Below are positions 103 to 21,149 of a stretch of 64,000 nt of DNA, in pieces. This DNA comes from an uncultured Caldithrix sp. GTDB lineage: Bacteria; Electryoneota; AABM5-125-24; Hatepunaeales; Hatepunaeaceae. Every line of letters begins with the position of its first letter. The stretch's first letter is position 1. The position numbers and the translations under genes were made by a program. A model generated the notes under the pieces. That model had not been told where the DNA came from. It made no database searches and was given only the letters and a program-made list of their open reading frames with translations. The stretch is from assembly GCA_964355675.1 (NCBI GenBank), contig CAYHEC010000010.1:41160-105159 (forward strand), in the 5' to 3' direction.

Positions 103-1554
103 TTAAGGAATAACATCCACGCGCTGTAATAGAATGTAATCTTTGTTCCATCCGCGTTCTAATTCGTTTTCGCTAACAGTAAGTGTCGGGGGACCATATA
201 CCGATGCTCTTGCCACAGGCTTATACAGGTGCGATAAAATTGTATCATTCAGTACTTCGCGATATTCAGTACCTACATTGAGATATGCCCAATGGGGGTG
301 GAGATTCCTAAGTATATCTGCGTTTGAATCATACCTATAATAATCCTTCCAGACTAACCCATGTCTGTCAAGAAGTATCGCCTTGCTGATAAAACCGAAT
401 ACGCCGACGTCAGACACACATACTGTGTCTGATGGGTGCACAAATGTTCGAGATATTTCTTGCACTTGTGGTATGAGATACTCAGTTTCCCCGGATTTTC
501 CGTCGCGGACGACTCTGTGGGTCCAATAGAGAATTGGTAAGAGCAGTACTATGGACAGAGCCGCAATTTTCCAAGTTCTCGCAAAATATTTCTCAATAAA
601 ATAGGCTATGCCAAACGCGATAACAGCCGATCTAACAAAAAAAAGAGGCAATCCATACCAAACCCATAATGGAGGTCTCATTACGATGTAAAATAATAGA
701 TAGACCAGCGACCAGATGGTTATAAAAGTAAATTCTCTGCTGAGACGAATCACGACCGGGAGAAATCCAATCATTGCCAATGTCATTACAATCCATGGCC
801 AAGAATTTTTTCCACCAGCCCAAAAAAAGAAAGCGAGTACTTGGTTGATTGTCAGTTTATTCTCAATGGACTTTGCGGCGACAGATTGCGGTATAACGCT
901 ACCGTAAATCCAGTAGATAAAGATTGCAGGGACAATTACTACAAGCGACGCCGCGACAATTTTGGGAATTCGGTTACTTTCTTTATGAAGAAGCAGATAA
1001 ATTCCTAATATTCCTGTTAAAAGAAATCCCTCAGGGCGCACCCAAATAGCCATACTGCTAATTATCAGTGCATTACCGATGCGTCCAGACGAAGCATAGA
1101 ATAAAGCTACAATCGTGATAACAAGAAAAAGGGGACTTTCCATTCCACCAATCACGTCTCTTGTGTAAACTCTATCCGCTAAAATAATCGCGCAGAATAT
1201 AACCCACCCACTGATCATATCCATTCGTTTGGCAATCAACCAAACAAAGAAGAGTAGCGTCAATTCTGATAGAAGAGCCAAGAGTAATGCAGCTGTTTCG
1301 ATAGGAACATGGAAGAATACAGGAACGGCTAAGAGCAACGCGTACAACGGCGAGGTTGTACCCAGCAAAGATTGGCCTATATTGAAGGTAAGACCATGTC
1401 CATCCACAAAATTCGAAGTGTGTCTAAACGTGATATATGCGTCATCAAAAAATGGAGTGACATATATTGCAAGCATTCTACTGCTTAGATAGACCAATAA
1501 GGTTGTCGCACACAATATATTGTTATTAAGAGATTTAATTGAATTAATGTTCAT
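103..1554 (-). CDS. Polytopic integral membrane protein, candidate GT-C-type (ArnT/PMT-like) glycosyltransferase
   Basis: 483-aa ORF, hydrophobic throughout with many predicted TM helices; acidic 'DDAYITFRH' motif near the N-terminus as in GT-C enzymes; lies in a glycan locus. Confidence 0.4.
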   Translation of the reverse strand: MNINSIKSLNNNILCATTLLVYLSSRMLAIYVTPFFDDAYITFRHTSNFVDGHGLTFNIGQSLLGTTSPLYALLLAVPVFFHVPIETAALLLALLSELTLLFFVWLIAKRMDMISGWVIFCAIILADRVYTRDVIGGMESPLFLVITIVALFYASSGRIGNALIISSMAIWVRPEGFLLTGILGIYLLLHKESNRIPKIVAASLVVIVPAIFIYWIYGSVIPQSVAAKSIENKLTINQVLAFFFWAGGKNSWPWIVMTLAMIGFLPVVIRLSREFTFITIWSLVYLLFYIVMRPPLWVWYGLPLFFVRSAVIAFGIAYFIEKYFARTWKIAALSIVLLLPILYWTHRVVRDGKSGETEYLIPQVQEISRTFVHPSDTVCVSDVGVFGFISKAILLDRHGLVWKDYYRYDSNADILRNLHPHWAYLNVGTEYREVLNDTILSHLYKPVARASVYGPPTLTVSENELERGWNKDYILLQRVDVIP

Positions 1555-1778
1555 TATTCTTCATTTTAAGTTGGGATTCCTTGTTCCTCGTTTTCTCTAA
1601 AGTCCTTAGAGGAGTTGATTGAATATTCGAATGGACGGTTGGTGAGGTGATGTCAGGTTATGGCTTAGAGTCGCTTCGACGATTGAAGAGCGGGCGTTTC
1701 GCTCCGATGCGAGGTTTAAAAAGCTCATTTGCGAACACTTCCGAATGAGCAATTTCGGTTTGGTAAAATTTCGGCCCA

Positions 1779-3422
1779 TTACTCGGTTAGTGCAACCTCA
1801 CTGTGTATGGCCGTAAACGGACCAAGAATAGTGAAATTTTCTTTCTGTTTGTTGTACATCATCCGCAAGTCAGACGAATATCCAAAAATACATATTGAAT
1901 TTTCAAAAGCATTATGCAAGGTAGAGTCATTGTCGATTGAGTTCAGATTTTTAACCTTCAGAACTGTGATGTTGGTTTGATTATTGTAAAATATCTGTCG
2001 ATTCTGTGTATAATGATTAGTTGTTAAATAGCCCATTCTATTTAGACATAAAGCCACACTTCCTCCAACGCCGGCACGAATAGCCATAATCGGATAGCCT
2101 TTTTCAATTCCGGTTTGGACAGCAGTCTCAATTTCCAAGTTCTGCTTCTTGACGAAATCTCGCCAATCACCACCGAATAGTGTGTAGAAATGTCCCCATA
2201 ACGGTCTGGGACCTTCAGACGTCGGTAATGCGCTCCCACTTTTTAATCCTAGCCGTATATACATTTCGGTTATAGAAACGGTATCCGCCCTTCTGACCTC
2301 AAAACCAGGTCCCCAAAGGGTTCTGGGTATATTAACCTGTAATCCGACGAACCAAGGGAGTACAAGCAGGAGCAGGAAGCCTGTTCGCCAAAGTAATTTG
2401 GATCGATCTCTATACCAGATCGTTCTGAAGCCAAAGTATGCAACCGCTATCCATAGAGGCCAGGCAGGTAAGAAAAACTTAGGCTCAGATGCGAAAGGAA
2501 GGGCGACAATTGTCGCTATGCACCACAGATATGCAGTTGGTCGGGAAGTTTGAAAAACTTGTATAATTCCAAACAAGAAAAGAAGAACAAATGCTGGAGT
2601 CAGAAATGAGGGGTATGATCTAAAGAAACCTTCAATTCGTTCCTGCAATCCAGGACCTATCGATTGGGATGAGTAAGTAAAAGCCAACCCTCCTTTGGCG
2701 ATATCATAAAGATCTGTTGGCCCGTAGCCTGATATTGCAAGAAAAAGAAATGTTGAGCAAAGTAATGCTATCATCCAATATGAAATGAACGCGAGGCTTC
2801 GCCGCCATTTGGCAAGTCCCATAATAAGTTGCATATCGAAGGCGATGACAGCGGCGTAAACGATCATGCTCCACCTGAATGATACCCCAAGACCAAACAT
2901 CAATGTCGCTAACGTCAACATCGTAATCTTTCTGCCATTCAGAACAACAGGATAATCGCTCTTTGCTGAATATTCTTCAAGTAATATCGACCTGAAGATA
3001 ATATGTGACCAAAGGATGAATGCCATCGAAACTATTGAAGGGTCATAAATAAGGCCTAAATATATAATTTCTGGAACAGAAAGCAGTAATACCATCGAGA
3101 ATACCAAACCATCTCTTTTTGTTGCCAAGCCGCTGATCGAAAGTGACAGCATCACGAGAAGCGTAGTAAAAAAGACTGCTGAGATCGCAGACAATCCAAC
3201 AGCCCATTTCCATAAAATTTCAGCTCTTGCGGGAAGGAATGACAGGATGTACTCAAACATGCTGTGATATTGAATCTGAAGCATCAGATCAGGATTTCGA
3301 CCGGACGTCTGAAATGCAATAGTAGTAGCGTCATCGCCTTCCACCACGCCAAGGGTTAGACTGCAACTATAGATAACTGCGAAAACTATTGCAATTAATA
3401 GAAATATACGCCAGGTTGACAT
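1779..3422 (-). CDS. Polytopic membrane protein, function unknown (possible GT-C-like glycan assembly protein)
   Basis: 547-aa ORF, N-terminal two thirds strongly hydrophobic with multiple TM segments, C-terminal ~150 aa soluble; no recognisable catalytic motif. Confidence 0.3.
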   Translation of the reverse strand: MSTWRIFLLIAIVFAVIYSCSLTLGVVEGDDATTIAFQTSGRNPDLMLQIQYHSMFEYILSFLPARAEILWKWAVGLSAISAVFFTTLLVMLSLSISGLATKRDGLVFSMVLLLSVPEIIYLGLIYDPSIVSMAFILWSHIIFRSILLEEYSAKSDYPVVLNGRKITMLTLATLMFGLGVSFRWSMIVYAAVIAFDMQLIMGLAKWRRSLAFISYWMIALLCSTFLFLAISGYGPTDLYDIAKGGLAFTYSSQSIGPGLQERIEGFFRSYPSFLTPAFVLLFLFGIIQVFQTSRPTAYLWCIATIVALPFASEPKFFLPAWPLWIAVAYFGFRTIWYRDRSKLLWRTGFLLLLVLPWFVGLQVNIPRTLWGPGFEVRRADTVSITEMYIRLGLKSGSALPTSEGPRPLWGHFYTLFGGDWRDFVKKQNLEIETAVQTGIEKGYPIMAIRAGVGGSVALCLNRMGYLTTNHYTQNRQIFYNNQTNITVLKVKNLNSIDNDSTLHNAFENSICIFGYSSDLRMMYNKQKENFTILGPFTAIHSEVALTE

Positions 3423-3731
3423 TAGAGTTTTTCTCTGATCGGTTTCAATAAAGTAGGTTTTCGGTTAATAGAAATATTTGGTGAAGCAGTGGTTATGGGA
3501 GGAATGGGCAAAATGGTGCACATTTGACTGTTTGTGAAGAGGGCTGAAATGAATGTATTTATCAACAGGGGATTTATATGAATTTGGATACACAAGCGAT
3601 CCACCTCTTTCATACCCGTAAGAAAACGAGCTGAAATTCAAGTTTAAGACCATTGTATAACCACACGGAGAGAATCACCCGTGCTGCCACCTCAACCTCT
3701 TCCTGACCCATTAATGGTTTAATGATAGGGA

Positions 3732-4712
3732 TCATGTCTTCACTTCTACCGTTTGTTCAGCTTTCCACCAATCCACAAGTTGTCGTAAGCCATCATGCAA
3801 CGAAACTTGAGCTTGAAAGCCAAGCAATTCCATAGCTTTGACGGTACCTGCCAATCTTCTGGTTACGGAATTGGTAAGGCGAGTCTCGCGATGCTCAACG
3901 GTAAGTCCCTTTGCTCCCATAACGGAGAGAAGTTCATTGGCAAGTTGAAGCAGGCTCGTCTCGGTTCCAGATGCAACATTAAAGACCTGGTCAGTGGCAT
4001 TCGATTTTGCCGCAAGGATATTGGAACGAGCAATGTCGTCGATATAAATGAAATCCATTGTTTGGAGCCCGTCACCGAAGATAAGCGGCGGCTGACCGGC
4101 GACGATCCGTTCCATCCAGCGGATTAAGACTTCGGTATATTTTCCATAAATGTCCATGCGGGGGCCATAGACGTTAAAGTAGCGAAGCGCAACATAATCA
4201 AGCCCATACATCGCGTGGAAGCTCCGCAACATTCCCTCGAGATAGACTTTAGCGGCTCCATAAATGGTGTCATTGGCGTATGGGTGATGATCTTCGAGAG
4301 TGGGAAATGCTTCCGCCAAGCCGTAAATGGAAGCGGAGGAGGCGGCGACGACTTTACGAACTTTAGCGTTCACAGCCGCTTCGAGTACGTTGTAAGTTCC
4401 TGTGGCGAGAACGTCATGGGCAAGCTGGGGTTGTTCGGCGCACTGAGTGATACGAATCGCCGCTTGATGAAAGAGAGTGTCGATCCCGGTGCAGATTTTC
4501 GCGAGAAGCTCTATGTCGCGAATATCTCCTTCGACAATGGTTACGTTGCCATTAGCGATTGCCCAAGACAGATTCTCCATTCGGCCACGTGTAAAGTTGT
4601 CGATGATGACAATTTCTGCCGCACCTTCTTTAACCAACAGGTCGGCGATATGCGATCCAACGAGACCAGCGCCGCCGGTGATTAAGTGGCGTTTGCCTAA
4701 AAGATTACTCAA
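3732..4712 (-). CDS. NAD-dependent nucleotide-sugar epimerase/dehydratase (extended SDR)
   Basis: N-terminal Rossmann motif 'ITGGAGLVGSH'; catalytic YxxxK 'YGAAK'; about 325 aa as in UDP-sugar 4-epimerase-like enzymes. Confidence 0.8.
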   Translation of the reverse strand: MSNLLGKRHLITGGAGLVGSHIADLLVKEGAAEIVIIDNFTRGRMENLSWAIANGNVTIVEGDIRDIELLAKICTGIDTLFHQAAIRITQCAEQPQLAHDVLATGTYNVLEAAVNAKVRKVVAASSASIYGLAEAFPTLEDHHPYANDTIYGAAKVYLEGMLRSFHAMYGLDYVALRYFNVYGPRMDIYGKYTEVLIRWMERIVAGQPPLIFGDGLQTMDFIYIDDIARSNILAAKSNATDQVFNVASGTETSLLQLANELLSVMGAKGLTVEHRETRLTNSVTRRLAGTVKAMELLGFQAQVSLHDGLRQLVDWWKAEQTVEVKT

Positions 4713-5668
4713 GTTTCCTCACGATTTATTTTGGATTCTTCCATTCCTACTTCCTCTTCGATTATGTATCTCGGCCGACCACGAGACTCATCGAGCGCAC
4801 GCCAAAGATATTCCCCCAAGACGCCCATCATCAGCATCTGCAAGCCTCCAATTACTAGCACCACGACCATCAGGGATGTCCAACCCTGCACCGGATTTCC
4901 TCCGGCAATAGCGTTATATATGATGAACGATGCATAAATAAATCCGATGAGGGCTAAAACAGCACCGACGATGGACATAAGACGGATAGGCAAAAAGCTG
5001 AAAGATATAACTGAATCGACGACAAGCTTGATCTTTTTGCTGACGCTCCACCCTGAACTGCCGTGAAGTCGAGCTTGTTTATCATATTGAATGCTGTCTT
5101 GACGGAAGCCCATCCAAGTGAGCAAAGGAATGAGGCTTATGTTTAGTTCCTTGAATCGACCAATCGAATCCACAACTTTCCGGTCGAGGAGAAAGAAATC
5201 TGCACCGGTGGGTGGTAAGCCTTTAACGCCGACGAATTTCCGCATGATCAAGTAGTATAATCTTGAAAACGCGCGAGTTGACATTGATTCGCCTTCGCGT
5301 TTTGCTCGCACTGCCCAGACAATTTGTGCTCCGCCATGCCATTTTTCTAAAAGTAATGGAATTGTTTCTGGGGGGTCTTGAAGATCTGCCGCGAGGACAA
5401 CAGCGCAATCACCTGTGGCATAGGTGAGTCCGCACATAATGGCACTAAAAGAGCCTATATTTCTCGAGAGTCTTATGCCCTTCAGTTTGAAATTATTTTT
5501 TGCAAGAGCTCGAACAATCTCGAAAGTCGCATCCGGCGAATGGTCATCAACAATGATCCATTCCCATTCGACATCCAAAGTTGACATTACGGTAAAAAGT
5601 CGTTGAGAAAGTACATTTAAATTATTGCTTTCGCGATAAGTGGGAACAATAATAGAAAGCTTGTCCAT
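4709..5668 (-). CDS. GT2 polyprenyl-phosphate sugar transferase (ArnC/GtrB/Dpm1-like)
   Basis: N-terminal 'LSIIVPTYRE...IIVDDHSPDAT' GT2 signature; two C-terminal TM helices typical of ArnC/GtrB family. Confidence 0.8.
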   Translation of the reverse strand: MDKLSIIVPTYRESNNLNVLSQRLFTVMSTLDVEWEWIIVDDHSPDATFEIVRALAKNNFKLKGIRLSRNIGSFSAIMCGLTYATGDCAVVLAADLQDPPETIPLLLEKWHGGAQIVWAVRAKREGESMSTRAFSRLYYLIMRKFVGVKGLPPTGADFFLLDRKVVDSIGRFKELNISLIPLLTWMGFRQDSIQYDKQARLHGSSGWSVSKKIKLVVDSVISFSFLPIRLMSIVGAVLALIGFIYASFIIYNAIAGGNPVQGWTSLMVVVLVIGGLQMLMMGVLGEYLWRALDESRGRPRYIIEEEVGMEESKINREET

Positions 5669-5674
5669 ACTACC

Positions 5675-6607
5675 TTACCAACCTTTAGAATGAGCTTCAG
5701 CGACTCTCTTGATTCCTTCACGTAAATTTACGCTGGGCATATAGTCAAGTAGATGTGTAGTCCTTTCAATCAACCCGATATGATTAGATCGAGGAGGATC
5801 TGGTAAATGATCAATAATAGGATCATTGAAAGTCACTTCTCCAATTAGATTCAATAGCTGTTTCAAAGATACCGATTCTAAACCAGCAAAATGAAACACA
5901 CCCTTTTCAGACGAATCGACCGTAGCAACAACCCCACGAGCCAAATCTTCAACCCAGACGGGATTCAGCATGAGGCCACTCTCGCCCTCGATTGTGACCT
6001 TCTTATGCTCCAATACATTGTGGATCAGCCGATTTACAAGGAACTGATCACCAAAAGGACCAAATGGATGAAAAAATCGTAGAACTGCAACCGAGAGTTC
6101 CTCGATGTAGGATTTTGCCAATATTTCTGAACAGGCTTTAGCGGCACCATAGAAACTCAAAGGTCGATACTCAACACTATCTTCGTATAAGGGATTCTTG
6201 CTCTCACCAATTGCGTCGCCTGAGGAGGCTATCGCCACTCGCTTGATTCCATTTTTCCAAGCCTGATCCAAAAGACGAAACGGCGCCGCGACACCCAATT
6301 CGAACATCGCTTTAACATTTCCGGGGAACTCTTTTAAGTCGGTTGGATTTGCCAAATGGATGATTGCATCAATTTCTTGCCAGTGAACTTCTGGGAGTGG
6401 TTCGCGCAAAGTATCCCATACAACCCATTTGAGGGAATTTGATATATGCAAATTCTCAAGTGGAATGTGGGTTGTAGCTGTTATACAGAAATTCTGCCGA
6501 AGCAATTCCAAGATCACTGCCCGACCAATGAATCCCGATCCTCCGGTGACCAGTACGTGTGGATTCCCGATCTGAAAAACGGAATCCGTGGCTACTCGCC
6601 GATTCAC
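5675..6607 (-). CDS. NAD-dependent epimerase/dehydratase family protein (SDR)
   Basis: 'VLVTGGSGFIGRA' Rossmann motif and 'YGAAKACSE' YxxxK motif. Confidence 0.7.
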   Translation of the reverse strand: MNRRVATDSVFQIGNPHVLVTGGSGFIGRAVILELLRQNFCITATTHIPLENLHISNSLKWVVWDTLREPLPEVHWQEIDAIIHLANPTDLKEFPGNVKAMFELGVAAPFRLLDQAWKNGIKRVAIASSGDAIGESKNPLYEDSVEYRPLSFYGAAKACSEILAKSYIEELSVAVLRFFHPFGPFGDQFLVNRLIHNVLEHKKVTIEGESGLMLNPVWVEDLARGVVATVDSSEKGVFHFAGLESVSLKQLLNLIGEVTFNDPIIDHLPDPPRSNHIGLIERTTHLLDYMPSVNLREGIKRVAEAHSKGW

Positions 6608-6728
6608 TTGAGTAATCGAAAATTGAGTTTACCGACTCTATGATAGATGACGGTGCCGAAATATTTTGCCGTTCGATAGCCTCGAATTGTTATGCCGAGG
6701 AAGAGTGTACCTATTGTTGGAGGCAATT

Positions 6729-7826
6729 CTATAGCGATCTCAAAAGGATTTGAATCACTTCATTAATCATCTCGCCGGTCAGTTCCGGGAACATTGGCAA
6801 CGACAGTTCCTCATCGCCAAGCTGTTCAGCGACCGGAAAATCACCTCGTTTGTAGCCAAGTTCGGCGAAGCAGCCGAGGAGGTGTATCGGAATCGGGTAG
6901 TGAATTCCAACTCCAACGCCCGCTTCCTGCAACTTCTTCAGTACACCATCCCGGTTCTTCACCCGGACTGCATAAACGTGGTTGACATGGCGGGCATAGT
7001 CCATCTCTTTGGGAGCAATAACTCCGGGGACGGCGTTCAATAATTCACAGTAAAGCTTGCCAGCCTTCCGGCGTCCTTCCGTCCATGATTCAATGTGGGC
7101 CATCTTGACGCCCAGCACTGCGCCCTGAATGCCTTCCATCCGGTAGTTATAGCCCTTCAGGTCGTGATAGTATTTCTTCTCGGCTCCCCAGTCGCGCAGA
7201 ATTTTGACGGTCTTGGCGAATTCTTCGTTGTTGGTAGTGACCGCACCGCCTTCGCCATACGCGCCAAGATTCTTGCCGGGGTAGAAGCTGAAACCGGCGA
7301 TGTCACCCATCGACCCGCAGCGCCGGCCTTTGTATTCAGCGCCGTGAGCTTGAGCGGCGTCTTCGATGACGATCAGGTTGTGTCGTTTGGCGATTTCGAG
7401 GATCGGGTCCATATCCGCTGACTGGCCGTAGAGGTGAACTGGCATGATAGCCTTGGTTCGAGGTGTAATGGCGGCTTCGATTTTGGCTGGATCGATAGTA
7501 TAACTTTCCGGATGAATGTCAACGCAGACGGGTTTGGCGCCGGTGTAATCCACTGCCATGGCCGTTGCTACGAAGGTCATTGCCGGGATAATAACTTCAT
7601 CGCCGCGCTTGATCCCAGCGGCAAGCAACGCCAGATGAAGAGCGCTGGTTCCGGAATTAACCGCCATGGCATGTTTACAGCCGGCGTAGGGTGCGAACTT
7701 GGCCTCGAAATCAGCTACGGCGGGTCCAAGGACAAATGAGGCGTTTTCAAGAACTTTGCCGATTGCGGCGTCGATCTCGGGTTTGATACTGCGATATTGA
7801 GCTTTCAGGTCCACAAAGGGTATCAT
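6729..7826 (-). CDS. DegT/DnrJ/EryC1/StrS-family PLP-dependent sugar aminotransferase (WbpE/ArnB-like)
   Basis: 'MIPFVDLKAQY' start, 'AVNSGTSALHLAL' and 'GDEVIIPAMTFVATA' motifs typical of the DegT family; canonical ATG at 7826. Confidence 0.9.
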   Translation of the reverse strand: MIPFVDLKAQYRSIKPEIDAAIGKVLENASFVLGPAVADFEAKFAPYAGCKHAMAVNSGTSALHLALLAAGIKRGDEVIIPAMTFVATAMAVDYTGAKPVCVDIHPESYTIDPAKIEAAITPRTKAIMPVHLYGQSADMDPILEIAKRHNLIVIEDAAQAHGAEYKGRRCGSMGDIAGFSFYPGKNLGAYGEGGAVTTNNEEFAKTVKILRDWGAEKKYYHDLKGYNYRMEGIQGAVLGVKMAHIESWTEGRRKAGKLYCELLNAVPGVIAPKEMDYARHVNHVYAVRVKNRDGVLKKLQEAGVGVGIHYPIPIHLLGCFAELGYKRGDFPVAEQLGDEELSLPMFPELTGEMINEVIQILLRSL

Positions 7827-7837
7827 TCGATAATCTC

Positions 7838-8851
7838 CTAATTGTTTAATTCGATAAGGCTGCCGCGCTGGCTCATAGACTCAGTGGCGGCTTCGAGAAT
7901 GCGGACAATTCGTAATCCGGAATCGGCATTGGTGATCGGTTTCTCGCCAGTTTGAATGCAGTGTAGAAAGTGTTTTGCCATCAAGCCTAATGCTTCACTG
8001 CCGTCCAGTTTAGGACACCACATATCACCAGAACGATAGCCGACTCTCATTTCATAGATATTCTTGGGATCATTGTCGAATGTAATCCCTTTATCATATA
8101 TTTTGATTTTTTCAGTTGGTTCGATGTCATCATAGAGGATCATCTTCTGACTGCCACCGATCAATGTCTGCCGCAGCTTTACGGGTGAGAGCCAATTCAC
8201 GTGGATGTGTGCGATGATCGGCTGTTCAAAAAAAAGTGTAAGATAGGCGACATTCTCCGGCTTGCCCGGGACATGCTTGATACCGGTCGCTGATACCGAA
8301 ACCGGCTTCTCTGTGAAGATAAAGTCGAGGATCGAAAGATCATGGACTGCCAGATCCCAGAGGACGTTCACATCATGTTGAAAAAGCCCAAGATTAACTC
8401 GGACAGAATCATAATAATAAATGTCGCCTAATTGACCGCTTGAAACCAGCTCCTGAATTTTCCTTACCGCGCCGGTAAAAGGAAAAGTGTGATCGACCAT
8501 GAGGATCAGATTGCGTCGAGACGCTTCTTCAATCAGTAGTTTTGCTTTCTTCGAAGAGTCTGATAGTGGTTTTTCGACCAGAACGTGCTTGCCTGCCAAG
8601 AGCGCCGCCATTGCCAGATCGAAGTGGGTAGATACAGGCGTTGCGATAGCAACCGCATCGACTTCTTTGCTGGTGAGTAACTCGTTGAAATTAGTAGTAG
8701 TTTTAATTGATGGATATCGATTTTTTACCTGAGCGAGTCGTGATTCGATCATGTCAGAAACCCAGGTGACCTGCGCTCCGGCCGACTCCATAAAATTGCG
8801 GACCAAATTAGGTCCCCAGTAACCGTAGCCGATGACTCCTATACGGAGCAT
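7838..8851 (-). CDS. Gfo/Idh/MocA-family NAD(P)-dependent sugar oxidoreductase (WbpB-like)
   Basis: N-terminal 'LRIGVIGYGYWGPN' Rossmann motif and 'EKP' motif characteristic of Gfo/Idh/MocA. Confidence 0.85.
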   Translation of the reverse strand: MLRIGVIGYGYWGPNLVRNFMESAGAQVTWVSDMIESRLAQVKNRYPSIKTTTNFNELLTSKEVDAVAIATPVSTHFDLAMAALLAGKHVLVEKPLSDSSKKAKLLIEEASRRNLILMVDHTFPFTGAVRKIQELVSSGQLGDIYYYDSVRVNLGLFQHDVNVLWDLAVHDLSILDFIFTEKPVSVSATGIKHVPGKPENVAYLTLFFEQPIIAHIHVNWLSPVKLRQTLIGGSQKMILYDDIEPTEKIKIYDKGITFDNDPKNIYEMRVGYRSGDMWCPKLDGSEALGLMAKHFLHCIQTGEKPITNADSGLRIVRILEAATESMSQRGSLIELNN

Positions 8852-8870
8852 AATTGTAATTCCTTCCTTT

Positions 8871-9266
8871 TTATGCGCGTGCGATGATAATTATTCCAGC
8901 CAATATGACGAGAATTCCGGTAGCTTTGATCATATTGAAAGACTCATGAAATAATGGTACTGCCCCGGCTGTTACCAAGACAAAAGTCATTCCAACAAGA
9001 ATCGGGTAACTGGTGCTGATCTCAGCAATGGATAAAACTTTAAACCAGACTAGAGAAGCGATTCCATAGCAAATTATCCCTAAAACGAACACAGGTTGTA
9101 AAGCAAGCCGGAGCGCCATTTCCCAGGCTCCCCCAGAGAGTGTAAAGCCGCCGACCTTCAGCAGACCGTAGCGCATGGTCAAGTTTGCGGCCACGGTCAA
9201 TAAGGCGCTTATTACAATCAGGACGAATATCTGAAGAGTCAACCTATTTCGCCCGGTTTCGAACAT
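8871..9266 (-). CDS. Small 4-TM membrane protein, EamA/SMR-like (ArnE/ArnF-like flippase subunit candidate)
   Basis: Track ORF 8871..9344 overlaps the upstream gene by 100 nt; an internal Met (9266) gives a ~130-aa hydrophobic protein; family assignment is by architecture only. Confidence 0.45.
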   Translation of the reverse strand: MFETGRNRLTLQIFVLIVISALLTVAANLTMRYGLLKVGGFTLSGGAWEMALRLALQPVFVLGIICYGIASLVWFKVLSIAEISTSYPILVGMTFVLVTAGAVPLFHESFNMIKATGILVILAGIIIIARA

Positions 9267-9777
9267 CCCCGCGCAAGCGCGCCGGGACGCCAGCGACAAC
9301 TGCATGAGCTTCGACACTTTTTGTGACGACGGCTCCTGCGCCAATCATTGCATTCTCTCCAATAGTAATGCCTGCCAGAATTACTGCTCCAGAGCCAATC
9401 GAAGCGCCTCTTTTAATTCTTGTGGGAATTACAACCCAGTCAGCCTCAGTCTGAAGTTGTCCCTCGGAAGTAGCGCGTGGAAAAAGATCGTTGATGAACA
9501 TAACTCCGTGTCCAACAAAGACATCATCTTCAATAGTTACTCCTTCGCAGACAAACGTGTGTGAGGATATCTTGCAACGGGCTCCGATAAAGGCGTTTTT
9601 TTGAATCTCGACAAAAGCACCAATTTTGGTTTCATCACCAATTTGGCATCCATATAGATTAACCAGCTCGGGTTGAAATATGCGAACGTCCTTTCCGAGT
9701 ATGACGTTGTTACTTACGGGCATAGATTGACTCCATTGGTTTATAATAAAGTGGTGCACATCTTGTGATGCGCTCAA
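9244..9777 (-). CDS. Hexapeptide-repeat (left-handed beta-helix) sugar N-acetyltransferase (WbpD/WlbB-like)
   Basis: Repeated [LIV]-G-x-x-x-x hexapeptides ('IGAGAVVTKSV', 'IGSGAVILAGITIGENAMIGAGAVV'); ~175 aa; adjacent to DegT and Gfo/Idh/MocA genes. Confidence 0.85.
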   Translation of the reverse strand: MSASQDVHHFIINQWSQSMPVSNNVILGKDVRIFQPELVNLYGCQIGDETKIGAFVEIQKNAFIGARCKISSHTFVCEGVTIEDDVFVGHGVMFINDLFPRATSEGQLQTEADWVVIPTRIKRGASIGSGAVILAGITIGENAMIGAGAVVTKSVEAHAVVAGVPARLRGDVRNRAK

Positions 9778-9784
9778 GAAAACA

Positions 9785-11002
9785 CTACGGATTTGAATAA
9801 GGATGCATTAATTCGATCAGCTGTTTTGTGGTAACTTCTACATTGAAATCGGTCATAACACGACGCCTGCCAGCCTCGCCGATTTGCTGTCTAAGTTCTT
9901 GGTTCTGAATCAACGATTCAATCGCGTCAGCCAATGCCTGGCTATCACGAGGAGGCACGAGTATTCCAGCTTCATCGTGTAACAATTCTAGTATTCCACC
10001 AGTTGTAGTCGAGATTACTGGTATGCCATAAGACATTGCTTCCATAAGCGCGACAGGTATTCCTTCATGCACGCCGAAATCTAATTCAATACTTGGGAGA
10101 ATTACTATATCTACGGAATTGCTCGAATAGCGATTCAGTAACTCTGCATGTTCAAGATGCCCCACAAATTCAACACAACCTCCTATTCCAAGGGTAGTCG
10201 TTAAGGCACGAAGCTCAGCCTCCAAGAATCCAAATCCAGCGAGGATCAATCTACAAAAAACATTTCGTTTGATTAATATAGCCAGAGCGTTAAATAAGTA
10301 AATATGACCTTTGACGGGATACAAATGTGCTGGACAAAATAAAATAATCTCTTCATTTAAATCAAGCAACTTTTGCTTAGATGTTGGGGGAATCCTTATT
10401 CCCATATGAATTACTTTGCAGGATTCGGGCATTTTTTCACGTTGAAGGGATTGACAGAGGTGCAATCCACTTAATGAAATAAACCGAGCAAAGACTGAAC
10501 TCTTCAGCTTCTTATTAAACATATTATTATCAACGATGTCCCACCGGTGTGCAGTGAAACTCCATGGTATTCCTGTCAGATTACTGGCAATCATTGCCAT
10601 GGTTGAAGTTGCAGAAGCCCATTGCGCATGAATATGGTTCACTTTATTTTGAATAGCTACTTGAGACAACCACAGCGCCTTAGGGAAAACCAACATGTTC
10701 TTCGTAAGATGAGTTAAAGAATTACTCTTTCGAATGATTAATAAAAATAGTGAAATTACGTTTATTGGATGTTTCAACAGAACTATAATAGAACTTAATA
10801 ATATCTGAAGCGAGAAGAGTGGTTGAAAAATACAGAATTCTTGTAGTTTCGTTGCACGGTCTTGGACCACCCGACGACTGTCTGGAGATCGTGGAATTAT
10901 CAGTAGGTCTATGTCTTGATTGATAAGTTCCAGCATTTCATCAAGAAAGAACTCCTCTCCCGACCCAAGCGGTGTTCGAACTGTAAGATAAATTAATCTC
11001 AT
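9785..11002 (-). CDS. GT4-family (GT-B fold) glycosyltransferase
   Basis: C-terminal 'EGIPVALMEAMSYGIPVISTTTGGILEL' motif (E-x7-E type) typical of GT4. Confidence 0.85.
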   Translation of the reverse strand: MRLIYLTVRTPLGSGEEFFLDEMLELINQDIDLLIIPRSPDSRRVVQDRATKLQEFCIFQPLFSLQILLSSIIVLLKHPINVISLFLLIIRKSNSLTHLTKNMLVFPKALWLSQVAIQNKVNHIHAQWASATSTMAMIASNLTGIPWSFTAHRWDIVDNNMFNKKLKSSVFARFISLSGLHLCQSLQREKMPESCKVIHMGIRIPPTSKQKLLDLNEEIILFCPAHLYPVKGHIYLFNALAILIKRNVFCRLILAGFGFLEAELRALTTTLGIGGCVEFVGHLEHAELLNRYSSNSVDIVILPSIELDFGVHEGIPVALMEAMSYGIPVISTTTGGILELLHDEAGILVPPRDSQALADAIESLIQNQELRQQIGEAGRRRVMTDFNVEVTTKQLIELMHPYSNP

Positions 11003-12190: not shown

Positions 12191-13702
12191 TTAAGCGACA
12201 ATAGTTTGTTTCTTATTAATCAATTTGGTAAATGAGTGTACTGGATTCCCTTTGAGATCAATACGTGCAGTCTTCGAGTATTTGACGGATAGCGCATACG
12301 ATTGAACCATATTATAACAAGCTATTGACGAGCCCATACTGAACCAGAGTAGTTTATCATAGCTGCCTTGTGTAGTCAAATTACCTAATAACAATATCAT
12401 GAAAATACTCTGCCATGCTCCGTTAATTGCGTTTAGATGCTTAAATCGGGTTTTATTGGCCACATAAAATAAATAGCCAGCACTCCCGAACATCAGCAAA
12501 TACAGTGCTAATCCAACCGAGCCGGTCTCTGCTAAAATAGAGATATAGCCATTATGTGCAACCAAGCGCAAGTGGCCCTGGTCGAGGGTAGTGGCGGCAT
12601 ATTTTGGTAATAGTGTTTGATAATTTCCAATTCCAACTCCGGCAATAGGGTTGTCCTTCCACATATTGATAGCAGCTTTCCATAGCTCAAATCTCAATCC
12701 TACCGTGTCAGTTTTATTCACAATCGAAGGGATCAGTTTCTCTTGCAAAAAATTCAAATATGCTGGCGGTATAATTACTGCCACAGTGATCAGCAGAATG
12801 GCAATCTTACTTAATACTGGTAAATGTAATATATTTCTATATATATATATATTCAATAGAATTGCTATTAGGAGTAGTAGTATACCGGTTCTCGAACCAG
12901 TGTAAACGGTTCCCATCACCAAAATTAATGCTGCAATCAGATAATGTATATTTTGGGTTCGTTTTGGTTGATTAACCCATAAGTAAATAACCATAATTAG
13001 CGCCACCACAAAATATCGGGCAGACGAGTTCGCTGCACTCATCAATCCGCCTGATCTGATAAACACATCCGTTGAGATTTCGCCAACGAGAATTGCTGCT
13101 ATGGCGGAAATACAGCACGATATTGTAAACCAAATAAATACGAATCGGTTTGAATCAATTGAATTTAGCATGCCTTTTACCATCCAAGCCATTGCGAGCA
13201 ATTGTAAGAAAGTAAGAGTCCAAATTCTACCACCTGTTGGTAACAAAGCTTCAAAATAGGTAATAGTGATCCAAACGGTAAGTAATAACCCATATAGCAA
13301 AGGATAACTATTAGTAAATTTTTTACTCGATTGCGGTAAGATAGTGGGTGATTTAACTATAATAAAAGAGATAATAGTTAAAAAGCCAATAATTAAGTAC
13401 AGTGATGATAAATATGGTATATCAGGAAGAAGATTCTCAATCGGTAATAATATCATTATAAATGCAAGTCCGATAAGTGGTTTTTTAGTAATAATTATTA
13501 TACTTGTTATTGTAAATATAGTCAATCCAATAATTGGGGCAAAGCTAAAAATTGATTTAAAAGACGAAATACCTACTGCTAATCCAGCCGAGAGCAATAA
13601 CGCAATCACCCTTCTGTTGTTCGAGACAGGTCTTGAGGTATCACGACGAATAGCATAAGGATTACGAGGAGCTACTCGTTGTTTTGCTATATTATACTGC
13701 AT
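12191..13702 (-). CDS. O-antigen ligase / polymerase family membrane protein (Wzy_C domain)
   Basis: About 12 TM segments; conserved 'HNGYISILAETGSVGLALYLLMF' motif of the O-antigen ligase/Wzy family; very AT-rich coding sequence. Confidence 0.75.
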   Translation of the reverse strand: MQYNIAKQRVAPRNPYAIRRDTSRPVSNNRRVIALLLSAGLAVGISSFKSIFSFAPIIGLTIFTITSIIIITKKPLIGLAFIMILLPIENLLPDIPYLSSLYLIIGFLTIISFIIVKSPTILPQSSKKFTNSYPLLYGLLLTVWITITYFEALLPTGGRIWTLTFLQLLAMAWMVKGMLNSIDSNRFVFIWFTISCCISAIAAILVGEISTDVFIRSGGLMSAANSSARYFVVALIMVIYLWVNQPKRTQNIHYLIAALILVMGTVYTGSRTGILLLLIAILLNIYIYRNILHLPVLSKIAILLITVAVIIPPAYLNFLQEKLIPSIVNKTDTVGLRFELWKAAINMWKDNPIAGVGIGNYQTLLPKYAATTLDQGHLRLVAHNGYISILAETGSVGLALYLLMFGSAGYLFYVANKTRFKHLNAINGAWQSIFMILLLGNLTTQGSYDKLLWFSMGSSIACYNMVQSYALSVKYSKTARIDLKGNPVHSFTKLINKKQTIVA

Positions 13703-17437: not shown

Positions 17438-19279
17438 TCAAAATTGTTTGTTTATAAACTGTCTGTGCCACAGCTCGACATTGATCCATTGCCAAATAAA
17501 AAAGGCATTGCTGTTATCACCTTTGCAATAACCATCAAATAGTCGCTTCACTTCAGAAACTTTAAAGTACCCTCTGTTTGCAAATTCTGAACTATTAATC
17601 AATTCGATAACCCAAGATCGCAATGGACCTAAAAACCACTCACGCTGTGGAGAGACTACTGCCCGTTTGCCCGACCAACAGAGTTGCCGAGGCAATTTTT
17701 CAGTCATCGTCCTGCGCAAAAGATATTTACCTAAACCATTCTTGATTCGTAAATGACCTGGTAAGCGAAACAAATACTCTACGATTCGATGATCTAAATA
17801 GGGTTCGCGCAATTCGCGGCTAAATGCCATCGATAACCGATCATTCATGCGCAAAACTCTTGGCAATTTTGTCCAACGCAGGTCACGAAATAATATTCTT
17901 CTTAACGAATCAGGGTATGAGCTATCGAAATTTGGCGCCACCATGCCGTGATCGGCTATATCATTACTTACTCCTTCTGGACGAAGGTGGTTTGTACCGT
18001 CTTGATACACATTTATCCAGCCACCATTGCTGAGGATGGATTTTGCCTGAGATAATTCAGTTTTCCAACTTTTACCCAAGCCACGAAGATTGGCATGAAG
18101 CTCCGCCCATATACGATTATGTATTAAATCTGCAAGATAATAGGGTCTCATATAATTATAGCCTGCCAGCATTTCATCGACTCCCTGTCCTTCGAGCAGT
18201 ACCGTAACTCCCATCTCTTTTGCTAATTTATGTTGATAATGATAGGCTATCGTCGAAACCCCACCGAACGGAGCTTCCTGATGCCACATAACCTCATCGG
18301 CAAGCTTTATCACATCGACTGGGGCGAGCCTTTGGTAATTCCTTTTCCAATTTGAATGAGTTATAATACTATCGGCAAATCCCTTTTCGTCATATTGTGG
18401 ATCATCATATCCGGCTGTAAATGTTTGTATTTCGCCATCTTTATCAATAATATCATCGACCGTAACAAGCAGACTTGCCGAATCCAGTCCTCCACTTAGA
18501 TTAACACCTACCGGGACATCACTTCGCAGGCGCAAACGAACCGAATCATTCAATAACCTACGAAATTCTTTCACGACCTCGTCCTCAGGAGCATTTACAA
18601 TATCTAAGGTTAAATCAGCCAAGTCCCAATATCGACAAATAGTGATTTCGCCATCGTTAACTGTCAGCGTACATCCGGGAGGGAGTACCTTTATCCCAGC
18701 GAAAAAGGTGTCGTCTGAATGATCAAAATAGCCATGTACAAGGTAATCTGCCCAAATTCGATGGTTTGGTTCGGCTTTGAAACCAGAGGCCAGAATTGCC
18801 TTGATTTCTGAGGCAAATAGGAACAAATTACTGTTAACTACATAGTGAAATGGCTTGATTCCAAGACGATCACGCGCGCAAAACAAGCAGTTTTTACGCG
18901 GGTCCCAAATTGCAAATGCAAACATGCCGATAAAGTGGTCAACACATTTTTCACCCCATCGATCGTAAGCGGCTAATACTACTTCTGTATCAGTTGCGCT
19001 TCGATAGGGGTAATCAAATAGTTCTTGTTTTAATTCAATATAATTATATATTTCACCATTCAGTACGATCCATCTTCCACTACGCGAATCTTCCATTGGT
19101 TGACTTCCAGAGGTCGAAAGATCGATGATGCTGAGTCGATTGTGACCCAAGCCAACCCGTCCGTCGTCAGAAATCCATGTTCCGTCTGAATCAGGACCGC
19201 GATGATGTTGAACTTTGACCATCGCCAACAAGTCCGGGAGCCGCCAACCCTTGCCGATTATCCCTGAGATGCCACACAT
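17438..19279 (-). CDS. Asparagine synthetase B-like glutamine amidotransferase (WbpS-like sugar amidotransferase)
   Basis: N-terminal nucleophile 'MCGISG' (class II GATase) plus PP-loop 'LSGGLDSAS'; 613 aa. Confidence 0.9.
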   Translation of the reverse strand: MCGISGIIGKGWRLPDLLAMVKVQHHRGPDSDGTWISDDGRVGLGHNRLSIIDLSTSGSQPMEDSRSGRWIVLNGEIYNYIELKQELFDYPYRSATDTEVVLAAYDRWGEKCVDHFIGMFAFAIWDPRKNCLFCARDRLGIKPFHYVVNSNLFLFASEIKAILASGFKAEPNHRIWADYLVHGYFDHSDDTFFAGIKVLPPGCTLTVNDGEITICRYWDLADLTLDIVNAPEDEVVKEFRRLLNDSVRLRLRSDVPVGVNLSGGLDSASLLVTVDDIIDKDGEIQTFTAGYDDPQYDEKGFADSIITHSNWKRNYQRLAPVDVIKLADEVMWHQEAPFGGVSTIAYHYQHKLAKEMGVTVLLEGQGVDEMLAGYNYMRPYYLADLIHNRIWAELHANLRGLGKSWKTELSQAKSILSNGGWINVYQDGTNHLRPEGVSNDIADHGMVAPNFDSSYPDSLRRILFRDLRWTKLPRVLRMNDRLSMAFSRELREPYLDHRIVEYLFRLPGHLRIKNGLGKYLLRRTMTEKLPRQLCWSGKRAVVSPQREWFLGPLRSWVIELINSSEFANRGYFKVSEVKRLFDGYCKGDNSNAFFIWQWINVELWHRQFINKQF

Positions 19280-19998
19280 TATTTATCTATTCCCAATTTT
19301 TTACGCATTAGGACTTCAACCATTGCCATATCGTTTTCGTCATCGACGCCTACAGAGCGTTCGGGAGGCATTATATAAGGAATAATCTTGTGACCCCAGA
19401 TTGAATTTTCTTCCAGTAGAACATCGCGCCGCGTAAGATAAATTGCACCATTCCGCATATACGCTGGGGGAGAGTAATCTTGTCTTCTTGTGCCCTCTTT
19501 TTCCTCAATACAAAATGGCTGAAGGTATCCTTCTTCGATCTTCTTCATTAACATAGGGTGAACCGAAAATACCTGGACTACGCTAATCACAGAGTCGCCA
19601 TTACCTTGTACACCAAGTTTTATGGCTTCCTCAATATCTTGCACTGTTCGGAAAGGTTCTGTTGGCTGTAAAAGGCATATCCAGTCAAGTCTTTGATTAT
19701 CACGCTGTTCAATGAAATGGGCTGAATGCTGGAGAACGGGTATCATGGGAACTTTATCATGGGACAGCTCTGGTGGCCTAATAAATGGAACAGTTGCCCC
19801 TGCTTCCCTCGATATTTGTGCTATCTCCTGATCATCAGTAGAAACAACAATATCGCAGAAAAGGTGCTTTGCGGCAAGAGCGGTTTCTATGGTATAAACG
19901 ATCATCGGTTTACCGCATACCTCGCGCACATTCTTCCGGTGAACGCCTTTTGATCCACCTCGTGCAGGGATAACTGCCAATATTCTTGGGTCTGCCAT
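19279..19998 (-). CDS. Acylneuraminate cytidylyltransferase family (CMP-nonulosonic acid synthetase, NeuA/LegF/PseF-like)
   Basis: 'ILAVIPARGGSKGVHRKN' signature; canonical ATG at 19998 overlapping the upstream stop (TAATG). Confidence 0.85.
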   Translation of the reverse strand: MADPRILAVIPARGGSKGVHRKNVREVCGKPMIVYTIETALAAKHLFCDIVVSTDDQEIAQISREAGATVPFIRPPELSHDKVPMIPVLQHSAHFIEQRDNQRLDWICLLQPTEPFRTVQDIEEAIKLGVQGNGDSVISVVQVFSVHPMLMKKIEEGYLQPFCIEEKEGTRRQDYSPPAYMRNGAIYLTRRDVLLEENSIWGHKIIPYIMPPERSVGVDDENDMAMVEVLMRKKLGIDK

Positions 19999-21149
19999 TA
20001 GTAGGTAAGTTTTTTGTCGATTTTTAATTCGATTGTAGATAGAATATCAGCGATTCGGTCTCCGGCACAGCCATCGCCGTATAGACTATCTGATGGGTAA
20101 TGTCCATGTGCAAGCTGGTGGGCAATTGCTTCTGTAATCTCTTGATGATCGTATCCGACATCCAACACATTCGAAGCGCGATCCCGACCACCCTGCCGAC
20201 TACCAATATTTACCACAGGAACTCCCAAGAAGGAAGATTCCCGTATTCCAACGCTTGAATTGCCAATTAGACAACGAGCTTGAGTGAGTAGATTCAGAAA
20301 ATCTTCAGGTGGTAAATTCTTATAAAAATATATATTACGAATATCATTTTGCTCGCGGAATAATCTCATCCCTTTAGAGATATGGTCAGAACCTGCGTCA
20401 ACATTGGGCCAGAACCAGAAAGTCGGCAGGTCAAGAGTTTTGACAGCCTTAAGGGTTTCGGTAATTTGAAAGAGCCCCTCATCGACTTCGGTCGTCACCG
20501 GATGTTGCATTACAATCAAATATCCGTTTTCAAGATTGAATGTGTGCCCAACTCCGCCATATTTGACCAAAGGGTTAAAATGCGAAATTGGATTCTTCTT
20601 GACTCGATCAGCCAAATCTATGGATGGACAACCGGTAATGAAAATCGTAGTAGGATCTTCCCCCATTTTTTCCACACGAACTTTGGCTTGAGAGTTAGAA
20701 ACGAAGTGAAAATTTGAGAGTTTGGTTACAGCATGCCGGACTTTCTCATCGATAGAGCCTGTTACTTCCCCGCCTTGAACGTGAGCAACGGTGATATTCA
20801 AATAGGATGCGGCTATAGCCGTTGCGATTGTCTCGTATCGATCTGCAACAGTTACAACAATATCAGGCTTGAGATTATCGAAAATCGTAGCAAGCTCAAC
20901 AACGCCTAATCCGGTTGATTTGGCGGCGGTGACAAGATTCTCACCCTCCAAAACCATATAGACAACGGCGTCGGGTGTAAAGCCATCACTCCGAATAACA
21001 TCGATGACAGGTCCATAACGCTCCAGGAGCGCCGAGGCGCCTACCACCAATTGTAATTTTAAATCCGGATGCAACTGCACAGCCTCCAGAACAGTCTTAA
21101 TACGAGAATAGCTTGGGCGCGCGGTTACAACGATACAGATATTTCGGAT
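19998..21149 (-). CDS. UDP-N-acetylglucosamine 2-epimerase, NeuC/WecB family; 5' end extended beyond the track ORF, candidate ATC start
   Basis: 'HVQGGEVTGSIDEKVRHAVTKLS' core motif; in-frame upstream codons encode 'RNICIVVTARPSYSRIKTVLEAV', which is the conserved NeuC/WecB N-terminus, with no ATG/GTG/TTG between the in-frame TAA TAA (21162-21167) and the GTG at 21080. Confidence 0.8.
   Translation of the reverse strand: MRNICIVVTARPSYSRIKTVLEAVQLHPDLKLQLVVGASALLERYGPVIDVIRSDGFTPDAVVYMVLEGENLVTAAKSTGLGVVELATIFDNLKPDIVVTVADRYETIATAIAASYLNITVAHVQGGEVTGSIDEKVRHAVTKLSNFHFVSNSQAKVRVEKMGEDPTTIFITGCPSIDLADRVKKNPISHFNPLVKYGGVGHTFNLENGYLIVMQHPVTTEVDEGLFQITETLKAVKTLDLPTFWFWPNVDAGSDHISKGMRLFREQNDIRNIYFYKNLPPEDFLNLLTQARCLIGNSSVGIRESSFLGVPVVNIGSRQGGRDRASNVLDVGYDHQEITEAIAHQLAHGHYPSDSLYGDGCAGDRIADILSTIELKIDKKLTY

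Follow-up and report, generated by a model that had tools for sequence, protein, structure and literature searches.

On a contig of an uncultured Caldithrix sp. (CAYHEC010000010.1), genes for an aminotransferase, an oxidoreductase and an acetyltransferase are grouped around a gene for a small membrane protein (6729..9777), and this arrangement raises the question of which activated sugar the three enzymes would make and for which kind of glycosylation it would be used. All positions refer to the whole stretch of 64,000 nucleotides that was analysed (the window). An earlier reading, made without database searches (the sequence-only reading), had offered two answers: the triad is the set used for uridine diphosphate (UDP)-2,3-diacetamido-2,3-dideoxy-uronic acids, as in the Wbp pathway, or it belongs, together with adjacent GT2 and GT-C-like membrane proteins, to an Arn-like route with a lipid-linked amino sugar. 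The Arn-like lipid-linked route fits better than the uronic-acid reading: triad and small gene probably constitute the front half of a three-component, Arn/Gtr-like module for periplasmic glycosylation, which extends over 103..9723 of the minus strand.

The four genes were all recovered with Pfam where the sequence-only reading had placed them:

6729..7826, minus strand: pyridoxal-phosphate (PLP) aminotransferase of the DegT/DnrJ/EryC1 family, 365 amino acids (aa) (Pfam DegT_DnrJ_EryC1, E=2e-126)
7838..8851, minus strand: nicotinamide adenine dinucleotide (NAD)-dependent oxidoreductase of the Gfo/Idh/MocA family, 337 aa (Pfam GFO_IDH_MocA, E=1e-26, and both C-terminal domains)
8871..9242, minus strand: small membrane protein with four helices and the small multidrug resistance (SMR) fold, 123 aa (start TTG 9242; NCBIfam ArnF/ArnE matches and fold)
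9244..9723, minus strand: N-acetyltransferase with left-handed beta-helix (LbH) of hexapeptide repeats, 159 aa (start ATG 9723; Pfam Hexapep, E=5e-19)

The sequence-only reading had described an overlap of the small gene with the 3' end of the acetyltransferase gene, and had pointed out that the start site needed to be resolved. The overlap is an artefact of the longest open reading frame (ORF), which begins at TTG 9344 and gives a protein of 157 aa (8871..9344). In this longer form, the NCBIfam match to ArnF starts only at residue 44. Since homologs of the small protein are about 124 aa long (nearly all 124-132 aa, with the N-terminus 'MT...') and align from this 'MT' with TTG 9242, read as M-T-L-Q-I, the start is assigned to TTG 9242, and the gene then comprises 8871..9242 (123 aa) and lies 1 base past the acetyltransferase stop (TAG 9246..9244). 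The other candidate starts, ATG 9266 and TTG 9344, are excluded by the same alignment. The corresponding junction is about as narrow in other genomes, where gaps of 1-2 nt are found (1 nt in a WOR-3 locus, L007), as well as overlaps of 4 nt in two metagenome contigs (L026, L027) and a gap of 4 nt in a third (L028); the two genes are translationally coupled in the window as well as in these genomes. Public gene callers are inconsistent on the small gene, which they give 144 aa or 82 aa or leave uncalled. Concerning the acetyltransferase, ATG 9723 (159 aa) is most likely the start rather than TTG 9777, because it is the start used in public gene calls and agrees with the length of complete orthologs (159-163 aa).

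The three enzymes fit C3 oxidation, C3 transamination and 3-N-acetylation according to their best solved relatives and families, and in this respect the chemistry implied by the sequence-only reading is borne out. Among structures in the PDB, the aminotransferase scores highest against 7b0d (392 bits), followed by QdtB (360 bits), DesV (350 bits), WbpE (279 bits) and, much lower, ArnB (177 bits); with QdtB, DesV and WbpE, all C3-type, as its top solved relatives, it is predicted to be a sugar C3 aminotransferase. The top PDB relatives of the acetyltransferase are 7s3u, 4mzu (bifunctional FdtD, annotated as WxcM-like), 3mqg and QdtC. Entry 3mqg, which we take to be WlbB, reaches 74 bits and stands within the top five. 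As these top relatives are 3-amino-sugar N-acetyltransferases, the enzyme would be expected to acetylate the 3-amino group of a nucleotide sugar; its orthologs in other phyla (62-74% identity, 159-163 aa) occupy the equivalent position. A literature search on the PDB entries 7B0D, 7S3U, 3C1A and 7N63 returned nothing relevant.

For the oxidoreductase, the top NCBIfam match is, by a wide margin, the archaeal UDP-N-acetylglucosamine (UDP-GlcNAc) 3-dehydrogenase (E=7.7e-51), with 173 bits, which falls short of the family cut-off of 450 bits. To this family belongs the UDP-GlcNAc dehydrogenase MMP0352 of Methanococcus maripaludis, which, as Namboori and Graham reportedly found in 2008, oxidises C3 directly, without prior oxidation of C6, and is said to be followed by an aminotransferase and an acetyltransferase. 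In the PDB ranking, 3c1a comes first and 7bvj second (71 bits), the latter being named in a preprint as the UDP-GlcNAc 3-dehydrogenase GnnA, and WlbA, the solved equivalent of WbpB, is absent from the best 60 PDB matches, all of which have at least 38 bits. Homologs with 58-72% identity exist in many phyla, and the enzyme is predicted to be a C3 dehydrogenase of UDP-N-acetylhexosamines (UDP-HexNAc).

These affinities bear directly on the uronic-acid answer, i.e., the classical Wbp/Wlb pathway (WbpA, B, E, D, I), in which the triad would act on UDP-N-acetylglucosaminuronic acid (UDP-GlcNAcA) and lead to the diacetamido-glucuronic or -mannuronic acid derivatives UDP-GlcNAc3NAcA or UDP-ManNAc3NAcA for an O-antigen, with the 6-dehydrogenase and the 2-epimerase encoded elsewhere in the genome. 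The enzyme classes equal those of WbpB, WbpE and WbpD, so that the reaction types (C3 dehydrogenase, PLP aminotransferase, LbH N-acetyltransferase) are shared, WbpE and 3mqg are among the solved relatives, and no more than 64 kb of the genome are represented in the window. The aminotransferase, however, is nearer to QdtB and DesV than to WbpE, the oxidoreductase is nearer to GnnA and the archaeal 3-dehydrogenase than to WlbA, and accepted Wbp orthologs of Pseudomonas and Thermus have 49-60% identity (PMC10622841). A WbpA-like 6-dehydrogenase, for which the sequence-only reading had advised a search, was not found in the window, although the gene could lie elsewhere in the genome: the large ORFs of the window hold no UDPG_MGDP_dh (UDP-glucose/GDP-mannose dehydrogenase) domain, and a scan for the catalytic cysteine motif of 6-dehydrogenases gave no hit, either in the window or in the 25 related loci that it covered. 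Nor does the window contain a non-hydrolysing 2-epimerase of the WbpI/WlbD type. Its sole Epimerase_2 protein (19998..21080) reaches 346 bits against NeuC_NnaA (cut-off 236 bits) and 72 bits against WecB, and by these scores it is assigned, beside NeuB, to the hydrolysing NeuC type of a nonulosonic-acid branch, not to WbpI. We regard the uronic-acid pathway as very unlikely here.

The match to GnnA gives rise to another explanation, in which oxidoreductase and aminotransferase, like GnnA and GnnB, would make UDP-GlcNAc3N for a lipid A backbone with 2,3-diamino-glucose. Entry 7bvj is indeed the second-best solved relative of the oxidoreductase, but the match amounts to only 71 bits, the pair is coupled, and conserved together, with an N-acetyltransferase whose acetylation at C3 would block the N-acylation of lipid A, and lpx genes are absent from the window; this explanation is extremely improbable. 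The best relatives of the oxidoreductase are the enzymes of the GnnA/GnnB pair and of the MMP0352 route of M. maripaludis (to UDP-GlcNAc3NAc), which use UDP-GlcNAc directly, with no oxidation of C6. Neither of these two routes is known to be associated with a flippase, with a GT2 acting on polyprenyl phosphate or with a GT-C enzyme.

Such membrane components are what distinguishes the present locus, beginning with the small protein inside the triad. In NCBIfam, this protein comes closest to ArnF (E=2.8e-14, 53.6 bits) and ArnE (E=6e-9, 36 bits), which outrank the SMR families of drug efflux, all of them lying under the curated cut-offs (99 bits for ArnF, 92 bits for ArnE); matches to Pfam SMR, EamA and TMEM234 are weak. 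The AlphaFold model (predicted local distance difference test, pLDDT, 92.5) consists of four long helices and a short loop helix, and its top Foldseek matches are Gdx-Clo and EmrE, with a template modelling (TM) score of about 0.67 on the query and 0.79-0.82 on the target and a probability of 1.00. The modelled protein has the SMR fold. Drug/proton antiport of the EmrE type needs a membrane-embedded glutamate in helix 1; helix 1 of the small protein, read directly in the sequence, has no acidic residue. The protein is predicted to be an ArnE/ArnF-like flippase for a sugar linked to undecaprenyl phosphate, present as a single gene as opposed to the ArnE/ArnF pair of Arn.

At lower coordinates, and thus downstream as transcribed, the same strand continues with the following features:

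5675..6607, minus strand: divergent extended short-chain dehydrogenase/reductase (SDR), 310 aa (Pfam Epimerase, E=2e-25)
4709..5668, minus strand: GT2 polyprenyl-phosphate glycosyltransferase of the GtrB/ArnC/PgfS type, 319 aa, with membrane helices at the C-terminus
3732..4712, minus strand: extended SDR of 326 aa (SDR326), predicted UDP-hexose/UDP-HexNAc 4-epimerase, WbpP/WbgU-like
3610..3735, minus strand: relic of 41 codons, N-terminus of an ArnB/perosamine-synthase-like C4 aminotransferase (DegT2), recognised by similarity to DegT2
1779..3422, minus strand: membrane glycosyltransferase with GT-C fold, 547 aa, of a rare family (no Pfam match; structure prediction)
103..1554, minus strand: GT-C membrane glycosyltransferase of an AftB-like family, 483 aa (family profile against PDB)

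Over residues 3-311 of its 319, the GT2 protein matches the solved GtrB sll0501 (E=2.5e-69, 237 bits), which is closer than ArnC, aligned over its full length with E=4e-44 and 154 bits. Its top NCBIfam matches are PgfS (206 bits, cut-off 500) and ArnC (169 bits, cut-off 529), and on these alignments it is assigned to the polyprenyl-phosphate glycosyltransferases of the GtrB/ArnC family. SDR326 finds as top PDB matches 6dnt, 4zrm (a UDP-glucose 4-epimerase), WbgU, 6wjb and WbpP. Its motif ASSASIYG...YGAAK is epimerase-like and, as read in the sequence, lacks the Asp/Glu of 4,6-dehydratases and decarboxylases.

Both large membrane proteins are GT-C enzymes, the one by an ArnT-like fold and the other by an AftB-like profile, and they show no significant similarity to each other (BLASTP), which rules out that they are recognisable paralogs. 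Neither the 547-aa protein nor its family profile has a sequence-level match in Pfam, NCBIfam or PDB, and its placement among the GT-C enzymes came from structure prediction only. Modelled by AlphaFold with an alignment of 31 family members (pLDDT 90, predicted TM-score 0.91), it has ALG12 and ArnT (5ezm/5f15) as top Foldseek matches (E ~1e-4, TM-score ~0.5; ArnT level with ALG12), followed by AglB, ALG6, AftA and EmbC. Past helix 1, the family possesses an invariant or nearly invariant motif E28-G29-D30-D31, some of its members match Pfam PMT_2, and one is labelled RgtA/B/C/D-like. A GT2 and a DegT protein that stand beside a Fulvivirgaceae homolog of the 547-aa protein share only 26-31% identity with those of the window and were ruled out as orthologs. 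The 483-aa protein itself has no match in Pfam or NCBIfam, but the profile of its family (56 members) matches the mycobacterial arabinosyltransferase AftB (9dlf) with E=1.2e-16. This family comprises 7609 cluster representatives at E<=1e-3, a few of its members match PMT_2 or Mannosyl_trans4, and past helix 1, D37 is nearly invariant and D38 invariant.

With these components, the mechanism of the Arn-like route suggested by the sequence-only reading is supported: as in Arn, a UDP amino sugar would be N-acylated, moved to undecaprenyl phosphate by a GT2 with C-terminal helices, flipped by a small protein of four helices and finally transferred by GT-C enzymes. The matches to the Arn families all stay below the curated cut-offs. 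It is not the Arn pathway itself, in so far as ArnA-, ArnB- and ArnD-type functions were not found in the window apart from the ArnB-like relic of 41 codons. In Arn, C4 oxidative decarboxylation is carried out by ArnA, whereas here C3 chemistry would be initiated by a Gfo/Idh/MocA dehydrogenase; an acetyl-type LbH transferase takes the place of the Arn formyltransferase, and there is no ArnD-type deacylase. Furthermore, Arn serves to attach 4-amino-4-deoxy-L-arabinose (L-Ara4N) to lipid A in enterobacteria and Pseudomonas, whereas two unrelated GT-C genes and the context of a polysaccharide locus are found here.

With the Gtr systems of Shigella and Salmonella (GtrA/GtrB/Gtr*), the module shares a polyprenyl-phosphate sugar synthase, a small linked membrane protein, a GT-C enzyme with an acidic motif in the first external loop and the position in a glycan locus; however, Gtr uses a flippase of the GtrA family and UDP-Glc, in contrast to the predicted diacetamido hexose from a dedicated cassette in which the flippase gene is embedded. 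Similarity to the Pgf system of Streptococcus mutans (PgfS, PgfM1, PgfE, PgfM2) concerns first of all the GT2, for which PgfS is the best NCBIfam match, although with 206 bits against a cut-off of 500. The parts of Pgf, i.e., a GT2, a 4-epimerase and two large membrane proteins, resemble the run of GT2, SDR326 and two GT-C genes, but Pgf has neither an amino-sugar triad nor an SMR-like gene. The three-component layout within an O-antigen locus has a published precedent in the pentofuranose system of Citrobacter youngae O1/O2, where a proposed flippase with four helices, similar to EmrE/ArnE, occurs together with a GT-C enzyme, which supports the favoured explanation; that system differs in starting from phosphoribosyl pyrophosphate (PRPP) (PMC11127046).

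Taken as a pathway, the Arn/Gtr-like module would work as follows, with the order of the steps, the identity of the sugar, the flipping and the acceptor inferred by us from the families of the proteins and from synteny. The Gfo/Idh/MocA enzyme would act first, in the cytoplasm, and oxidise C3 of a UDP-HexNAc, for which UDP-GlcNAc or its 4-epimer from the WbpP-like SDR326 is the most likely candidate, the DegT enzyme would transaminate the 3-keto sugar, and the hexapeptide transferase would N-acetylate the product to a UDP-2,3-diacetamido-2,3-dideoxy-hexose, which is not a uronic acid. The GtrB/ArnC-type GT2 would load this diacetamido sugar onto undecaprenyl phosphate, and the SMR-fold protein of 123 aa, which like other members of the SMR group probably dimerises, would flip the lipid-linked sugar across the inner membrane to its outer face, from where the two GT-C enzymes would pass it to periplasmic acceptors. 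As acceptor, the polysaccharide of the surrounding glycan locus of about 39 kb is most plausible, because this locus holds a Wzy_C protein, Wzm/Wzt, many genes of the GT2, GT4 and GT9 families and nonulosonic-acid genes; lipid A-core would be a less likely one.

Lipid A as the target would correspond to a true Arn-like modification, by which the sugar is deacylated to a cationic amino sugar, placed on the phosphates of lipid A and thereby confers resistance to cationic peptides. The resemblance of the parts to ArnC, ArnE/F and ArnT, the last being among the best structural matches of the 547-aa protein, agrees with such a modification. On the other hand, no deformylase or deacetylase domains (Polysacc_deac_1, YdjC) were detected in the large ORFs of the window, the window has neither a formyltransferase domain nor an ArnA-type formyltransferase/decarboxylase, the SDRs reach at most 38 bits against ArnA in NCBIfam, the aminotransferase is of the C3 rather than of the ArnB type, an N-acetylated product would be neutral, and the module lies at the end of a long polysaccharide locus with Wzy_C, Wzm/Wzt and many glycosyltransferases. 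A modification of lipid A of this kind is hardly to be expected.

The grouping of the genes is not confined to the window. Apart from the window's own copy, 17 loci were compared, 16 of which had been retrieved by the profile of the small protein alone, and one, the WOR-3 locus L007, via the oxidoreductase. The order acetyltransferase, small gene, oxidoreductase is found in 11 of the 17; in one, the contig ends directly past the small gene, and three others possess the cassette genes in a different order. Because loci retrieved by the small protein carry matching neighbours (cassette neighbours are common to 15/17), the arrangement of the four genes is not a chance grouping, and this conserved linkage stands, as an observation, beside the folds and families of all parts. 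A GT2 ortholog with 53-60% identity adjoins the cassette in eight of the 17 loci (L007, L010, L012, L017, L019, L020, L021, L023). According to their record titles, the 16 loci belong to Verrucomicrobiota/Verrucomicrobia, Candidatus Acidiferrales, Terriglobales, delta-proteobacteria, Smithella, Desulfobulbia, Anaerolineae, a cyanobacterium, Burkholderiales, Betaproteobacteria and Acidimicrobiia, and the cassette pattern is repeated in metagenome contigs (L026, L027, L028). GT-C genes of the PMT/PMT_2 or GT87 families adjoin the cassette in three loci (L010, L016, L020), and elsewhere, other large polytopic proteins with acidic pairs past helix 1 do so. The G+C content of the module core (4001..10000) amounts to 0.46-0.50, compared with 0.37-0.43 in the flanks and neighbouring glycan genes; together with the 58-74% identity of cassette proteins across distant phyla, this suggests that the cassette is transferred horizontally as a unit.

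In L026 and L027, the cassette (at 3029..6017 in L027) is situated directly past genes for a carbamoyltransferase, an SxtJ-like protein and a DUF5989 protein, and L026 contains a second small EamA-like protein.

Compared with other cassettes, the copy in the window appears in a reduced form. A commoner, fuller cassette additionally includes a PglD-like acetyltransferase, an ortholog of SDR326 (57-69% identity, within canonical clusters) and a second aminotransferase, DegT2, whose best PDB relatives are perosamine synthetase and ArnB, i.e., C4 enzymes; through the ArnB-like aminotransferase and the PglD-like acetyltransferase, it would also install an acetamido group at C4. Intact orthologs of the C4 aminotransferase and of the PglD-like acetyltransferase of the canonical clusters were looked for in the window and not found. 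The ORF of the relic starts in an ATGA overlap with the stop of SDR326, and its residues 1 to 26-34 align with the N-terminus of DegT2 of L010 and L005 (53-54% identity, 32-34 bits), in both of which DegT2 follows the SDR326 ortholog. An identical ORF of 41 aa is present in three independent assemblies, the rest of the DegT2 gene being deleted. With a relic that follows the SDR326 stop and matches the N-terminus of DegT2, the window copy is therefore a trimmed cassette that has lost its C4 branch. It is quite possible, and we put it forward tentatively, that such cassettes represent an undescribed pathway widespread across phyla, in which di- or tri-acetamido sugars are linked to undecaprenyl phosphate and attached by variable GT-C enzymes to glycans of the cell surface, on the far side of the cytoplasmic membrane, while a family of small flippases of its own, not yet named, serves only this cargo, the window copy being a trimmed example.

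Several observations weigh against the reading as an Arn/Gtr-like module. Oxidoreductase, small protein and GT2 all remain below NCBIfam cut-offs, so that they are relatives and not assigned members of these families. In the characterised Citrobacter system, too, the protein with four helices is only a proposed flippase (PMC11127046). The search for a 6-dehydrogenase covered the 64-kb window, the 310-aa SDR has no role in the proposed pathway, and the C4-aminotransferase relic indicates some decay in the window copy. Furthermore, a profile search of the other loci found no member of either GT-C family of the window next to the cassette; conservation as a unit does not extend to the acceptor step, and the transferase end therefore varies, as expected if acceptors differ among organisms. 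In Chroococcidiopsis, the triad occurs with 62-69% identity but has neither the small gene nor a GT2 of the window type, and it can therefore also feed ordinary cytoplasmic glycosyltransferases. Finally, the oceanic cassettes L026 and L027 have no GT2 in the available contig sequence, which reaches about 6 kb beyond the cassette in one direction and 10 kb in the opposite one.

The last two points agree with an explanation in which the functions are split: cytoplasmic Leloir glycosyltransferases (GT4/GT2) would incorporate the sugar of the triad into the repeat unit, while GT2, small protein and GT-C enzymes would constitute a separate, Gtr-like side-branch system that adds Glc or GlcNAc. The Chroococcidiopsis triad lies in a glycan locus of the ATP-binding cassette (ABC) transporter type, several GT4 genes are found directly upstream of the module in the window, and the closest solved relative of the GT2 is, with 237 bits against 154 for ArnC, GtrB, which is an undecaprenyl-phosphate glucose synthase (PMC11127046). 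The position of the small gene is difficult to reconcile with such a split, as it stands inside the triad, is coupled to the acetyltransferase and keeps this position in 11/17 loci, whereas a generic Gtr flippase would be expected beside the GT2 and not within an amino-sugar cassette. A division of functions is therefore considered unlikely.

If the Arn/Gtr-like reading is correct, donors consisting of a 2,3-diacetamido hexose linked to undecaprenyl phosphate are added to three-component glycosylation of the Arn/Gtr type, and fuller cassettes probably use 2,3,4-triacetamido sugars. The class of mechanism is well known; what would be new are the donor sugar and the family of small proteins embedded in the cassette, which current gene callers and family libraries handle poorly, and the finding has no bearing on a long-standing open question. 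In a literature search, which did not extend to subscription journals, no paper was found that brings diacetamido sugars together with a polyprenyl-phosphate GT2 or a GT-C system. For annotation, the following rule results: a WbpB/E/D-like triad with an embedded gene for a protein of four helices and a GtrB/ArnC-like GT2, but lacking a 6-dehydrogenase, is not to be labelled a ManNAc3NAcA pathway.

Concerning the remaining gene of the module, the 310-aa SDR is probably an epimerase or reductase that acts on a sugar. Its top PDB match, 6dnt, reaches only 75 bits, MoeE5 and UXS score lower still, mapping of the window proteins onto the related loci gave no ortholog, and with the SDR of equal length in L028 it shares only 22% identity.

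The module terminates the glycan locus of about 39 kb, and from about 39 kb down to base 103 all sizeable ORFs are carried by the minus strand. Scans for promoters and terminators performed no better on this sequence than on shuffled sequence. One co-directional locus includes the Wzy_C membrane protein (polymerase/ligase family) and the Wzm/Wzt ABC exporter with its Wzt_C domain (12191..13702 and 36793..38959, minus strand). The nonulosonic-acid branch (17438..23118, minus strand) encodes the NeuC-type 2-epimerase, a NeuB-like synthase with SAF domain and a cytidine monophosphate (CMP)-sugar cytidylyltransferase, and furthermore a D-2-hydroxyacid dehydrogenase and an AsnB-type amidotransferase. 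At 30970..35827 (minus strand), a split transketolase pair (N-terminal half and pyrimidine/C-terminal half) lies beside two SDRs, a GDP-fucose-synthase-like gene and an RfbH-like DegT gene, and an unusual sugar, branched or dideoxy, may be made by the products of these genes.

At the upstream end of the glycan locus, a ParB-like gene is situated (39089..39970). It is followed on the plus strand (40419..48908) by a gene for a protein of 2829 aa with repeated modules and a C-terminal type A sorting domain of the type IX secretion system (T9SS; TIGR04183, above cut-off); a sorting tail of this kind hints at an organism of the Fibrobacteres-Chlorobi-Bacteroidetes group. Past this gene, the opposite strand carries two ORFs, of 498 and 591 aa, neither of which matches a family. 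At the other end, just beyond base 1 of the window (L001, 18951..21014), there are genes for a GT2, a Bac_transf phosphoglycosyl transferase and another DegT aminotransferase. As these genes lie downstream of the 483-aa GT-C gene and past the window, the glycan locus extends beyond it.

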